Of a DNA stretch of 64,000 nt, positions 30,919 through 54,527 are shown one piece after another; positions within the stretch are counted from its first letter, which is position 1, and each line of letters opens with the position of its first letter. Both the position numbers and the translations under genes were made by a program. The DNA comes from a virus, in the IMG/VR virus record IMGVR_UViG_3300034111_001103, positions 32,001 to 96,000 of that record. One strand, 5' to 3'. The notes below the pieces were generated by a model. That model ran no database searches and was not told the DNA's origin. It was given only the letters and a program-made list of their open reading frames with translations.

Positions 30919-32279
30919 AATTTGGTTTTTTATTTATTTATTTATTTAATTAATTTAAAAAATTTCTCAAAAAAATTCTTTTTTGGTTGAGGTTGGGGTT
31001 TATTATTAATAATTCTTTTTAATAGCATTATTTCTTCTTTTAAAGTACTCACTTCATCTAGTAGTCTTTTTTCTTTTTTCCAATTGTCAGCTAATTGTTC
31101 TTCATGTTTTTTCATAAGTTCTAGTAACATATCTTCTTTTGTATAAACAAAGAATTTATCTCCACTACATCTGTTTATATACGCAATGTGATTATGCTCT
31201 AATAAAGTACTATCTCTAAGTAATTTATGATAGTGACTAAGTTCTAATACAACTGTGTTTACTTTTTGCATACTTTTATTTATTTAATAATTTTAATTCT
31301 ATTAGGTTTAATTGGGTAGCTAGAGACATATTCAATTCTTTACAGAGAGTTTCAGAATGTGAATCTTTTACTAGTATCCCTAGGGTTCTATATTTAGATA
31401 TACAGTTTGTTAAGACTTGTTTGTTTTTGCAAAGTTTTAACTCCTCTATAATCTTAGTCTTTGTAAACTCATTATATCCTTCTATCATAAAGGTACTTAT
31501 AATCAAGTTATCATTAGAAGTAATTCTTATGTTCTTTATAAGGCAAATCAACTCTATATAGAATCTAACAGAATCTATGTAGGAAGAAGAATATTTTGTA
31601 ATTTGTATCTTTTGGGCTTTCATATTTATATTTTATATTCCTAATACTGAATCTATAAGTGCATCTAAAGTATCTACTGATTCTGGAGAAGTAAAAGTAA
31701 TATCTATACCTGGGATAATAATCTCTGTTTGTTCAAAACTTACCTCATCAAATGCATAAGGTATCAAAACTATTCCTTTTATACTATCTCCATATACTAC
31801 TAAGTCTCTAACAGAATAATCTGATGGAGCTATTTCTACCTTTACTATATCACCTTCCTCTTTACCCTCTAATTCTTTTTCTATTTTATCTGAAACTCTT
31901 TTATTGTTACAGAATATAGGAATTCTTACTTTTAATATTTTATCCATTATCTAATAATTTTTGGTAAAGTTACAAAGAATTTTTGACATTTAGTATGCTT
32001 TTTACATAAAAAAGTTATCAACATTTTATAACTTATTGATTTTCAAACACACTAGTTTCTATATAGAAATATTTAGGTTTTGATTTTTGATCTTCAGGAA
32101 ACATTTTTAAGTACCAACCATTTTGTTTTAAATGGTTTTGTAACCAAAGATTTTTCATTACAATATTATACACTAATTCTACTTCATCTTCCCTACAACT
32201 AAAACTAGAATATTGTTTATCCTCTTGTAAATCTTTAAATTCTGTTAATTTCATATTTTTGATTTTTAGTTATTTTTAG

Positions 32280-51743: not shown

Positions 51744-52328
51744 ATGACACAAAAAATTAGTAGAGTTAATCTCAAAGTCATCTATGACAATGTTTGTCAA
51801 GATTGGAAAAATATAATAACTGATATGTTATTATGGAATGTAGAAAGTTCTATAGAAATAGAAGAAGAAACTATCTTAAAAGGATATAATCAAGCAAATT
51901 CTGAACAAAAAATATTATTAGAAAAATACTTTAAAATAAACACACCTAAAGACTTAACAAAAACATTAAAAACTTGGAAAGATGTGTTAAAATATGCTAA
52001 AGAAAAAGGATATAACTTTAAGTTACCTTATTCTGAAAAAACTCAAGTAAAAGAAGAAATATCTTTAAATGCTTTATGTAAAATACATTTATTAGCTAAA
52101 GTATTTAATGAAGATTGGACAGCAAATTTTAAAGACTCAACTCAATACAAATATTATCCTTGGTTTGAAAGAAAAAGTTCTGGGTGGGTCTTTAGTGTTG
52201 TTTATTATCGGGCTTCTGTTTCTTCTAGTGGCTGGGGTGCTCTTTCATACTTTAAAAGTTCAGAAATAGTAAATTATATCGGTAACAATAAAGAATTTGT
52301 AAATATTTATAATGAATATTTACAATAA
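51744..52328 (+). CDS. DGR target protein 1 (VR1 at 52178-52249)
   Basis: QYKYYPWF precedes VR1, which differs from TR1 only at adenines plus one 3-nt insertion. Confidence 0.9.
   Translation: MTQKISRVNLKVIYDNVCQDWKNIITDMLLWNVESSIEIEEETILKGYNQANSEQKILLEKYFKINTPKDLTKTLKTWKDVLKYAKEKGYNFKLPYSEKTQVKEEISLNALCKIHLLAKVFNEDWTANFKDSTQYKYYPWFERKSSGWVFSVVYYRASVSSSGWGALSYFKSSEIVNYIGNNKEFVNIYNEYLQ
52178..52249 (+). repeat. DGR variable repeat VR1
   Basis: 18 substitutions versus TR1, all at TR adenines. Confidence 0.9.
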
Positions 52329-52511
52329 AGTTAATTATTTTATATTATTCTAGGTAGGTCTTTAATGATGTTAATTATCAGAATTCTAATTCTAATAGCT
52401 AGAGTACTCTAACATATTTTGTATTTAAAGAAATAATTAACTTATCCTATAGGATAAAAATCAAGAAATATTTTAAAAAGTGTTTGGTAGGTCTATTCTC
52501 GAAGAACATTT
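52328..52511 (+). ncRNA. DGR RNA 1: TR1 (52348-52416) plus structured flanks
   Basis: AAT-rich copy of VR1 enclosed by a 13-bp inverted repeat and followed by two hairpins. Confidence 0.85.
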
Positions 52512-52519
52512 AAATTAAT

Positions 52520-53470
52520 ATGAAAAGAATAGGAAATTTATACAATCAAATATGTGATAGAAATAATATAGAATTAGCTATAAAAAATTCACAAAAAAGT
52601 AAGAAGAAAAATAAGAATGTTATAGAATTTAACAAAAATTATGAAAATAATTTAGAAATTTTAATAAATTTACTAAAAGAAGAAAAATATGTTATTTCAG
52701 ACTATAAAATAAAATATATTAAAGATGGAAATAAAATAAGGGAGTTAAAGATACTCCCTTATTTTCCAGATAGAATTATACAACATTGTATATTAAATAT
52801 AATATCTTTTACGTTATTAAAAACTTTTCCTACTAATACTTATTCAGCAATTAAAAATAGAGGTATACATAAGTGTTTGTACAAGTTAAAAAGTATAATA
52901 AATAAGTATGACTATTGTTTAAAACTGGATATTAAAAAATATTATGAAAATATAGATAATGACATATTAAAATCTTTTCTTTTAAAAAAATTTAAAGATA
53001 AACAATTATTAGATTTACTTTTTCATATAATAGACAAAGAAAAGGGATGTGTAATTGGCTCTTATTTGTCACAATGGTTTGGTAATTTTTATTTATCTTA
53101 TTTTATACACTATTTAAATGATAAAAAAGATATTAAAGTTTTAGTTTATATGGATGATATTGTTATATTAGGTAATAGTAAACAATTATTGTATGATTTA
53201 AAGTTAGAAATAATAGAATATTTAAGAACTAAACTAAAGTTAGAATTAAGTAATCATCAAGTATTTTCTCTTACACAAGGTATAGATTTTTTAGGCTACA
53301 AAACATTTAAAACACACATTTTAATAAGGAAAAGAATAAAATTAAATTTTATTAAAATGATTAAAACAAATTATAATGAAAAGTCAATTAATAGTTATTT
53401 AGGTTGGCTTTGCCACGGAAATACATTAAATTTACAACAAAAATACATTAAAAATGCAAAAAACAATTAA
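52520..53470 (+). CDS. DGR reverse transcriptase
   Basis: PDRIIQH, LKLDIKKYY, GCVIGSYLSQ (DGR-type SQ), YMDD, GIDFLGY, SYLGW. Confidence 0.95.
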   Translation: MKRIGNLYNQICDRNNIELAIKNSQKSKKKNKNVIEFNKNYENNLEILINLLKEEKYVISDYKIKYIKDGNKIRELKILPYFPDRIIQHCILNIISFTLLKTFPTNTYSAIKNRGIHKCLYKLKSIINKYDYCLKLDIKKYYENIDNDILKSFLLKKFKDKQLLDLLFHIIDKEKGCVIGSYLSQWFGNFYLSYFIHYLNDKKDIKVLVYMDDIVILGNSKQLLYDLKLEIIEYLRTKLKLELSNHQVFSLTQGIDFLGYKTFKTHILIRKRIKLNFIKMIKTNYNEKSINSYLGWLCHGNTLNLQQKYIKNAKNN

Positions 53471-53948
53471 TTTAACAAAAAAAGAAGCTATTAAATTTTA
53501 TAATAGTGCACAAGATCAAGGATTTAAAGATTTATTAGAAACAAATTTTGGTAAAGATTTCTGGAAACAAGAAATTACAGATTTAGTATATGATTTAGAT
53601 TCTTTAAAAGAATATTGTAAAAATAACAATATATCTTTTTCTTTACCTTATCTTTGTGATACTCAAGATAGTTTAGAAAAAACATTAAATGCTACTTACA
53701 TATTAGCAAAAGTTGCTAAAATATATAATAAAGGAACTATTTTAAATTGGAAAAACAATAATGAATACAAGTATTTACCTTATTTATATTTTTCTGGTGG
53801 TTCTGGGGTTGCTGCTGGTGTTTCTTTTTATTGGGATTCTGATTTGTTTGCTTCTTATTGTTTGTACTATAAAAACTCAAATTTAAGCACAAAATCTTAT
53901 AATAACTTTAAAAAATATTGGGAAGATTATTGGGGAGTAGAACAATAA
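53454..53948 (+). CDS. DGR target protein 2 (VR2 at 53790-53868), paralogue of target 1
   Basis: EYKYLPYL precedes VR2, which matches TR2 except at adenines. Confidence 0.9.
   Translation: MQKTINLTKKEAIKFYNSAQDQGFKDLLETNFGKDFWKQEITDLVYDLDSLKEYCKNNNISFSLPYLCDTQDSLEKTLNATYILAKVAKIYNKGTILNWKNNNEYKYLPYLYFSGGSGVAAGVSFYWDSDLFASYCLYYKNSNLSTKSYNNFKKYWEDYWGVEQ
53790..53868 (+). repeat. DGR variable repeat VR2
   Basis: 18 A-specific substitutions, 1 C>T and one 3-nt insertion versus TR2. Confidence 0.9.
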
Positions 53949-53958
53949 TATAAAAAAG

Positions 53959-54151
53959 AGATAAATAAATATTTTCTAGTAGTTCTAGGGTTACTAATGA
54001 TTCTAATAATTGGAATTCTAATTTGAATACTCCTAATTGTTTAAACTTAATTATAATACAAACAATTTTATTTATCTTAACCTATTGGTTAAAAAAACAA
54101 GCAAAATCTTAAAACAAATCCCTTAGTACCTTTAGTGTGGAAAAGGGATTT
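53959..54151 (+). ncRNA. DGR RNA 2: TR2 (53972-54047) plus structured flanks
   Basis: AAT-rich copy of VR2 enclosed by an 11-bp inverted repeat, followed by the same two hairpins as TR1. Confidence 0.85.
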
Positions 54152-54527
54152 TTTAATTAAGTACAAAAATATAAAGTAAAATATGGAATTACCAATATTA
54201 ATACCTACAATATATGTAGATACTCCAGAACATAAAAAAACTATTCAATATGGGAAATATTTAGTAGTAAGAAAAGATGGTAAAACTCACTTAGAAACAT
54301 TTAATGGAACTGGATGGGCTTATAATCATAATACTATTATAGCTTATTATTTACCTAAAATTAATTAAAAATGAATTATTTAGATACATTAAAACAAAAA
54401 AAATCAATAGATACAGAGTATGAAACTCAAAAAGAGTTATTATTACAACAAATAACTAACATAAATACTCTATATAGTAAATATAATGGAGATTTTTTAA
54501 AAGAATTAAGTCAATTTACTAAAGATT

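Follow-up and report, generated by a model that had tools for sequence, protein, structure and literature searches.

The described systems closest to the element reported here are the avd-TR-Sp RNA of Bordetella phage BPP-1 (Rfam RT-10; Handa et al., bioRxiv 10.1101/2023.10.23.563531; NAR 2018, PMC6182149), the Rfam motifs RT-17 and RT-14, and diversity-generating retroelements (DGRs) with more than one template repeat (TR). Downstream of the TR, the BPP-1 RNA forms an Avd-binding stem-loop and then a template:primer duplex between TR and spacer (Sp), which ends in the priming adenosine (bioRxiv 10.1101/2023.10.23.563531). Two nucleotides past this adenosine lies the cPRT Stop, an 11-bp duplex of Sp with upstream RNA that has one unpaired base and is followed by a short stem-loop, with adenosines in A-minor contacts to terminal G:C pairs of the duplex; a single-stranded Thumb Ring and a stem-loop with internal loops that binds the reverse transcriptase (RT) complete the RNA (bioRxiv 10.1101/2023.10.23.563531). 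Putative stop duplexes averaging 13 bp were described in 207 of 278 Avd-containing DGRs, 47 with an adjacent stem-loop (bioRxiv 10.1101/2023.10.23.563531). The motifs RT-1 to RT-19 were found next to RT genes; only RT-10 was tied to a DGR, that of BPP-1, while such a role was speculated for others and no function was assigned to RT-17 (Weinberg et al., 2017, PMC5737381). About 20% of DGRs with several variable repeats (VRs) carry two or more TRs (Yan et al., 2019, PMC6642488). Here, we compare these systems with a locus at positions 51744-54151 of a 64,000-nt stretch of viral DNA (the window; positions 32,001 to 96,000 of IMG/VR record IMGVR_UViG_3300034111_001103), a DGR on the + strand that has one RT and two modules, each made up of a target gene, a TR and an RNA scaffold (units 1 and 2).

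We consider it highly probable that the whole locus is best explained as a DGR in which a single RT serves two modules, with a scaffold of the RT-17 type on each TR; within this explanation, we infer RT binding, the stop function, the service of unit 2 by the RT and independence from Avd. A sequence-only reading of the window had placed three stems in both units, one closing the TR, a hairpin adjacent to it, and a distal stem that encloses RGUA and GAA. All three could be read where that reading had put them, and RNAfold returned all three helices in both units. The closing duplexes differ in sequence between the units: positions 52328-52340 (AAGTTAATTATTT) are the exact reverse complement of 52431-52443 (13 bp), and positions 53959-53969 (AGATAAATAAA) that of 54067-54077 (11 bp), with a terminal G-U pair lengthening the duplexes to 14 and 12 bp, respectively. 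When the upstream region was shuffled, an equal score was reached in 0 of 100 cases for unit 1 and in 1 of 100 for unit 2. The hairpins of the two units are distinguished by one compensatory swap, U-A to A-U. The distal stems are unrelated in sequence, both enclosing RGUA opposite GAA, and the 2-bp inner stem of this stem-loop (with a bulged U and a 6-nt loop in unit 1) covaries between the units, GG/C.C versus CC/G.G. Non-template RNA amounts to ~110 nt per unit, 14 nt upstream and about 95 nt downstream of the TR.

That the two units share one covarying RNA fold, as had been proposed from this pair, was confirmed far beyond chance by covariation over ~80 related viral loci. The RT has 2669 homologues at E<1e-20, and relatives were gathered with an alignment query, given that a locus search with the single protein had given one relative only. 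In the close phages L002, L005 and L006, whose RTs are 77-84% identical and whose two-unit layout is that of the window, hairpin and distal-stem cells of the eight units of the four phages were 98.4% paired versus 79.6% after shuffling. For most of 80 viral loci with RTs only 42-56% identical, a covariance model built from these eight units (R1) matched a site whose end lies ~8-12 nt ahead of the RT start, and a rebuilt model (R2) did so for essentially all of them; the element ends at this distance from the RT start in essentially all 86 loci, which vary in G+C. Across 82 distinct sequences, 88.6% of cells were paired (64.6% shuffled), double changes occurred at 16 of 16 pairs, and sliding the partner by one to three columns lowered pairing to 39-52%. 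Unpaired positions were conserved as well: the AAA after the hairpin is A in 82/82, 81/82 and 72/82 sequences, and the distal internal loop is nearly invariant, with G, U and A each in 81/82 and GAA in 77, 81 and 79 of 82. The family consensus 3' of the distal stem is UUUAAA. On plain MAFFT alignments, which are not model-fitted, RNAalifold predicted the hairpin and the distal stem de novo, and on the alignment of the distant clade (A10, 28 loci) it additionally predicted the closing duplex and nothing inside the TR. The duplex was missed on a mixed alignment (A9), in which the 5' arms of the AT-rich clade are misaligned, and appears on A10. Finally, G-U pairs are frequent on the + strand only (e.g., UG in 29/82 and 21/82 sequences at two pairs) and therefore point to an RNA in sense orientation and not to a DNA feature.

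The closing duplex brackets a real TR. When 52 units were searched for the sequence that pairs best with the 20 nt ahead of the hairpin, the partner lay 79-108 nt upstream in most of them, with ~25 different arm sequences; longer distances were found, for example, in L029 (116 nt), L001 (139 nt) and L019 (151 nt). In 35/35 units, a VR located upstream could be aligned to the enclosed loop along 51-117 nt; 9-23 TR adenines were mismatched, against 0-1 other positions. Between the TR end and the 3' duplex strand lie 3-20 nt in 33 of these 35 units, 23 nt in L001, and 32 nt in unit 1 of the window, where the ungapped TR match is shortened by a codon indel. In a cross-locus control, a unit's own upstream region scored 20.9 on average, compared to 14.6 for the upstream regions of other loci. 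On A10, the duplex was 96.6% paired versus 82.8% after shuffling and at most 46% when slid, with double changes at 8/12 pairs, and the two G:C pairs adjoining the hairpin were invariant in 27/27 sequences. The distant-clade duplex pairs GGUU-G-UGCAGUGU with ACACUGCA-AACC over 12 bp with one bulged base. The layout around the TR varies: several distant loci have ~570-660 nt between the VR and the TR downstream of it, a gap that holds an open reading frame (ORF) of ~125 aa with no Pfam or NCBIfam match (e.g., L051:1910-2287), while elsewhere the TR directly follows the target gene.

Sequence homology places the downstream part of the scaffold within Rfam RT-17 (RF03020), as a divergent and AT-rich representative of a fold that is known and not new. 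Unit 1 aligned end to end with the RT-17 and RT-14 models, below threshold, and 11/20 relatives tested passed the RT-17 gathering score at the exact site matched by our own models. A further model (R3), made from distant loci only, with the window clade, L008, L013 and L066 excluded, found exactly two units in the 64-kb window (51.6 and 50.4 bits, E about 2e-7), with whole unit 2 at 50.4 bits (E 2.8e-7) and the next match at E 0.33; the R3 alignment was made with R2, a descendant of the window-seeded model, and included no window-clade sequences. Given that relatives pass RF03020 and that R3 finds both units, the hairpin and the distal stem can be assigned to RT-17 as divergent members. The RT-17 features are ACC before the hairpin, an A-run after it, an A-rich linker, and a stem enclosing UGGUAG...CGAA, and this architecture and its conserved nucleotides were found in the full-length model alignment of unit 1 and in the family columns, which include both units. 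The site directly 5' of an RT gene is shared by unit 1 and not by unit 2. In contrast to Rfam members, the window copies are too AT-rich and divergent for the Rfam cut-off, and the Rfam model lacks the 5' strand of the TR-closing duplex. RT-14 (RF02921) likewise has a hairpin, an A-rich linker and a stem enclosing UAGUA..GAA, and unit 1 aligned over its full model (19.9 bits; gathering score 48.1); RT-14 differs by an extra 5' stem with a 45-nt insertion, both missing from the window scaffold. Rfam matches of unit 2 to CRISPR-DR66, PreQ1 and greA were spurious and rejected as chance.

The sarcin-ricin or loop E (bulged-G) motif has the consensus 5'-AGUA-3'/5'-GAA-3'. The internal loop of the distal stem, which had been called loop-E-like, agrees with this consensus, having RGUA opposite GAA, helices on both sides and near invariance in 82 sequences; the agreement is one of sequence consensus only, and the bulged-G geometry is putative. 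The suggestion that the fold newly defines RT recognition did not hold, since the hairpin and the distal stem are already part of RF03020, and the duplex, hairpin and A-run correspond to the published cPRT Stop.

Both modules have a VR that differs from its TR mainly at adenines. VR1 and TR1 align with 17 mismatches at TR adenines and 1 elsewhere. For strain comparison, we used ten contigs from other samples (L091-L100) with a near-identical RT (P0004, 99% identical to the window RT); L002, L003 and L004 are identical and thus uninformative on VR variation. Compared over the 370 nt that reach from VR1 as far as the RT start, the strain contigs differ inside VR1 only, and TR1 and scaffold 1 are 100% identical in the 10 contigs. 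VR1 has at least four alleles, with substitutions at TR1 adenines only, plus a codon indel. Because VR1 changes only at TR1 adenines among near-identical strains, unit 1 is clearly active. The VR2/TR2 alignment (53786-53868 versus 53968-54047) has 20 mismatches at TR adenines and 2 elsewhere; the scored stretch starts four bases upstream of the annotated TR2 (53972), and as these hold two A-site mismatches and one other, the core has about 18 A-site mismatches and 1 non-A. VR2 has two alleles, which differ mostly at TR2 adenines in an alignment read by eye. Slight differences between the two strain groups also occur in TR2, in scaffold 2 and in the sequence around VR2, and the VR2 divergence could therefore be older. 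Unit 2 is thus probably active, its recent activity being less certain than that of unit 1.

The strain contigs also record other changes. The extra codons of the two VRs, TCT-type in VR1 (52217-52222) and GCT in VR2 (53810-53815), both lie within short repeats and are both missing in nine near-identical strain contigs (targets of 193 and 163 aa), while L099 is like the window; the indels are therefore polymorphic, and slippage in cDNA synthesis or replication could explain them. Compared to L091-L100, the unit 2 half (53760-54160) has about a dozen differences outside the VR, four of them in TR2 and one a C-to-U change in the distal stem with pairing kept as G-U, whereas in the unit 1 half VR1 alone differs. 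This unequal divergence of the two halves suggests a mosaic or recombinant history of the locus.

A covariance-model scan had been proposed as a way to find TRs without an RT, and such second cassettes were indeed found. The two-unit arrangement with an RT-less second copy is conserved in six lineages (the window, L002, L005, L006, L008 and L013), including L008 and L013, whose RTs are only 51-56% identical to the window RT; within the fetched flanks, a second unit was present in 7 of about 86 loci. In L002, L005, L006, L008 and L013, the second unit is accompanied by a VR of its own with adenine-only mismatches, which, together with its compensatory changes, argues for continued function and not decay. 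The proposal that both units are under selection is likewise supported by alignment: conserved with compensatory changes in these five lineages, both are under purifying selection. In L066, an extra complete unit with closing duplex, TR-like loop, hairpin and distal stem (L066:170-384) lies ~2 kb upstream of the RT-proximal unit, before ORFs of 99 and 451 aa, and no VR belonging to it was located; this arrangement differs from that of the window, and RT-distal cassettes therefore arose in more than one arrangement. Two weak R1 matches elsewhere in the source genome (G000 107707-107779 and 146059-146131, E about 0.1) were absent from the R2 results and are attributed to chance, so that this genome has no further satellite TR.

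The source record is a complete genome of 168,934 bp with direct terminal repeats, AT-rich at ~25% G+C, and the only named phage that matched the RT region by DNA was the crAss-like phage cr55_1 (64% identity over 16% of the query). The features of the locus are collected in Table 1. The translation of P0001 carries GSYLSQ, which conforms to the GxxxSQ motif of DGR-clade RTs. The two target proteins are paralogues (BLASTP 32% identity, E 8e-11), and the whole target-TR-spacer module was therefore duplicated around the RT. Both are small, have no Pfam domain and match phrog_11581 (unknown function). Each TR is followed by about 100 nt of non-coding sequence; downstream of unit 2 come a 61-aa ORF and no RT gene. 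At L076:3450-3746 and L066:3454-3756, a conserved ORF of ~100 aa (P0124, P0125) overlaps the RT 3' end; it matches phrog_19665 (unknown function) with no Pfam match, and has no homologue in the window genome, where its place is taken by target gene 2. Its product may be an accessory factor in the DGRs of those distant loci.

Table 1. Coordinates of the DGR features in the window.
Feature	Position	Strand	Evidence or remark
Target gene 1 (P0002, 194 aa)	51744..52328	+	ORF list; VR1 at ~52178-52253, near gene 3' end
Unit 1 closing duplex, 5' strand	52328..52341	+	Perfect complement of 52430-52443; overlaps last base of target-1 stop codon
TR1, loop within closing duplex	52348..52420	+	A-specific mismatches to VR1
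Unit 1 closing duplex, 3' strand	52430..52443	+	Near-invariant C (model position 3; 81/82) pairs with 5'-strand G
Unit 1 hairpin UUAUCC-UAUA-GGAUAA, abutting duplex	52442..52457	+	RNAfold; covariation; de novo RNAalifold
Unit 1 A-run and single-stranded A/U-rich linker with UCAAG	52456..52477	+	Column conservation
Unit 1 distal stem-loop	52478..52511	+	8-bp stem, GGUA/GAA internal loop
DGR-type RT (P0001, 316 aa)	52520..53470	+	RVT_1 E 1.2e-14; phrog_1423 E 8.5e-90
Target gene 2 (P0003, 164 aa)	53454..53948	+	VR2 at ~53786-53868; start overlaps RT gene end
Unit 2 closing duplex, 5' strand	53958..53969	+	Complement of 54067-54078
TR2, second template repeat	53972..54047	+	A-specific mismatches to VR2; no RT gene after
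Unit 2 closing duplex, 3' strand	54067..54078	+	Complement of 53958-53969
Unit 2 hairpin UUAACC-UAUU-GGUUAA	54077..54092	+	RNAfold; covariation
Unit 2 A-run and single-stranded linker with ACAAG	54091..54115	+	4 nt longer than in unit 1 (annotated 25 vs 22 nt)
Unit 2 distal stem-loop, 9-bp stem AAAUCCCUU/AAGGGAUUU	54116..54151	+	AGUA/GAA loop, inner CC/G.G stem, then U-run

Avd is an accessory protein present in most but not all DGRs. The Avd profile PF05635 found no match across the complete 168,934-bp genome, the neighbouring ORFs had no Pfam or NCBIfam match in profile searches, and the two ORFs upstream of target 1 gave no informative lead in a protein atlas.

Several observations weigh against a two-module DGR with an RT-17-type scaffold on each TR. 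Unit 1 scored 18.8 bits against the RF03020 gathering score of 40.4 (E 0.27 in a 261-nt search), and unit 2 gave no RF03020 match at all in the Rfam scan. The folding energy of the whole units was not better than that of shuffles (z -0.65 for unit 1, -1.42 for unit 2); such unexceptional energies are as expected at ~25% G+C, and the support therefore comes from covariation and not from stability. Alignments A6, A7 and A11 were fitted to a window-seeded model, which favours the structure; this does not apply to A9 and A10. Neither a template:primer duplex nor a priming nucleotide was found, and given the short gap between TR and duplex (3-23 nt), the priming geometry of BPP-1 is not simply transferable. 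The absence of Avd comes from profile searches only. In addition, only two VR2 alleles were seen among 11 contigs, with their surroundings also diverged, and each window VR is one codon longer than its TR, which is unexpected from a single faithful retrohoming event.

Some of these observations would also fit a different history, in which unit 2 is a relic of a tandem DGR duplication that has lost its RT, no longer undergoes retrohoming and keeps its stems by recent descent. No RT gene follows unit 2, VR2 has one allele in 9 contigs where VR1 shows 3, the TR2 of the window has a private C where other strains have T, producing a non-adenine mismatch, and the Rfam models do not detect the unit. 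A relic of this kind, however, would hardly be kept in lineages with RTs as divergent as those of L008 and L013 (51-56% identical), nor carry compensatory changes of its own, and R3 scores unit 2 as well as unit 1. Given that TR2 and VR2 differ, in every lineage, essentially at adenines alone (15-20 A versus 0-1 non-A) and that the VR2 differences between strain groups fall mostly at TR2 adenines by eye, we regard decay of unit 2 as unlikely.

We give still less credence, and consider it quite improbable, that the stems serve gene expression, with the distal stem of unit 1 regulating RT translation and that of unit 2, with its U-run, acting as an intrinsic terminator. The unit 1 stem does end at 52511, 8 nt ahead of the RT ATG at 52520, and UUUUUU follows the unit 2 stem in the window, L002 and L005 (UUUU in L006), in line with the UUUAAA of the family consensus. 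Yet the element with the invariant GUA/GAA loop occurs both ahead of an RT and where no RT follows, a terminator scan was negative at the unit 2 stem because the "loop" there is 18 nt, and neither a terminator nor an occlusion hairpin explains the near-invariant unpaired nucleotides and the TR-closing duplex. The stems may nonetheless have a secondary regulatory or terminator role. Least credible of all is that the complementarities arose by chance at ~25% G+C or are DNA inverted repeats at duplication boundaries. Many short complementarities are expected in AT-rich sequence, and the whole-unit folding z-scores are unremarkable; the covariation statistics oppose chance matches, however, as do the constant location relative to RT and TR in 86 loci of varied G+C, the de novo recovery of the helices by RNAalifold and the strand-specific G-U pairs. 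The covariation and positional data effectively refute this reading.

Returning to the DGR with a scaffold on each TR, the likeness to multi-TR DGRs (Yan et al., 2019, PMC6642488) is that a single RT locus comes with multiple TRs and several targets. RNA scaffolds were outside the scope of that survey; in the window, each TR carries a complete scaffold of its own, and the duplicated unit is the whole target-TR-scaffold module. Our literature search for duplicated DGR scaffolds yielded multi-TR DGRs and no description of scaffold duplication. What is new here is that RT-17 is linked to DGR function and its model extended by the closing duplex, and that a compact scaffold with no apparent Avd is duplicated on both sides of one RT, with one copy RT-less. 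We lean slightly towards the module being a self-sufficient, duplicable cassette, such that an Avd-independent RT would recognise the ~110 nt wherever they are transcribed and diversify several genes from separate templates. If so, natural proof of a compact portable DGR RNA would come from the RT-less cassettes, which occur in at least two independent arrangements, downstream in the window clade, L008 and L013 and upstream in L066. The sequence-only reading had proposed a minimal portable DGR RNA, and given about 110 nt of non-template RNA and no Avd detected, this is a reasonable inference. The fold itself overturns nothing known. Rather, an orphan Rfam family would gain a function, with RT-17 as the cis-acting scaffold of a large phage DGR clade, and the RT-less duplicated cassette argues that one RT can serve separate scaffold-bearing template RNAs. 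The short non-template RNA and the shared RT are relevant to DGR-based targeted continuous mutagenesis and offer a compact natural test system.

Homology to RT-17 and analogy to BPP-1 support the view that the fold is a cis-acting scaffold likely recognised by the RT; of the earlier claim that the pair of units defines both an RT-recognition and a priming structure, the scaffold part thus stands, while for priming no structure was found. We propose that each TR is transcribed inside such a scaffold, in which a 12-14 bp duplex of the TR flanks would loop the TR out and the short hairpin would stack directly on this duplex, followed in turn by the invariant adenosines, the A-rich linker and the distal stem-loop. 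By analogy, duplex, hairpin and adenosines would act as a cPRT Stop: the template would be positioned within the RT, and cDNA synthesis would come to a halt once the 5' edge of the TR is reached. The linker would wrap the RT thumb, and the distal stem-loop would be the grapple that binds the RT. The RT encoded after unit 1 would bind both scaffolds, including that of unit 2 away from its own gene, and would use TR1 and TR2 as templates for adenine-mutagenised cDNAs, by which VR1 and VR2 of the two paralogous target genes would be replaced.

Compared to BPP-1, several elements are missing or altered. The window genome has no detected Avd gene, and the 3-23 nt between TR end and duplex are too few for the 30-nt Avd-binding stem-loop, nor did RNAalifold predict a conserved helix there. 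A conserved template:primer duplex was seen neither by eye nor with RNAalifold on sub-alignments, which returned no conserved helix for the 3' end of the TR or for the linker. By analogy with BPP-1, the priming nucleotide would be expected within 52418-52430 in unit 1 and 54048-54066 in unit 2. We noticed by eye that in unit 2 AAUUGUUU (54035-54042, TR2 3' end) can pair perfectly over 8 bp with AAACAAUU (54060-54067), directly ahead of the 3' duplex strand, in the geometry expected of a template:primer duplex; this pairing has no counterpart in unit 1 or the family consensus and may be chance in AT-rich sequence. The non-template RNA is 160 nt in BPP-1 versus about 110 nt here, and the window has two scaffolds per RT.

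The order of the elements is nevertheless identical to that of BPP-1, a likeness for which we do not claim sequence homology. The closing duplex (~11-13 bp, with a 1-nt bulge in relatives and conserved G:C pairs by the hairpin) resembles the cPRT Stop duplex, the abutting hairpin its adjacent short stem-loop, the invariant AAA the A-minor adenosines, and the single-stranded A-rich linker the Thumb Ring, while the distal stem-loop with its near-invariant internal loop, a predicted RT binder, takes the place of the RT-binding stem-loop. The architecture of the cPRT Stop is thus present, as a TR-bracketing duplex, an abutting hairpin and AAA, and its stop function is suggested by analogy; in BPP-1, re-pairing of a disrupted stop duplex failed to rescue activity. 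The cPRT Stop architecture, known from cryo-EM of one Avd-dependent Bordetella phage element, accordingly recurs, supported by covariation, in a distant clade; there, Avd was detected neither in the window genome nor among the two flanking ORFs checked in relatives. If the cassette reading is correct, the RT-17-type scaffold would represent the minimal core shared with BPP-1, minus the Avd arm.

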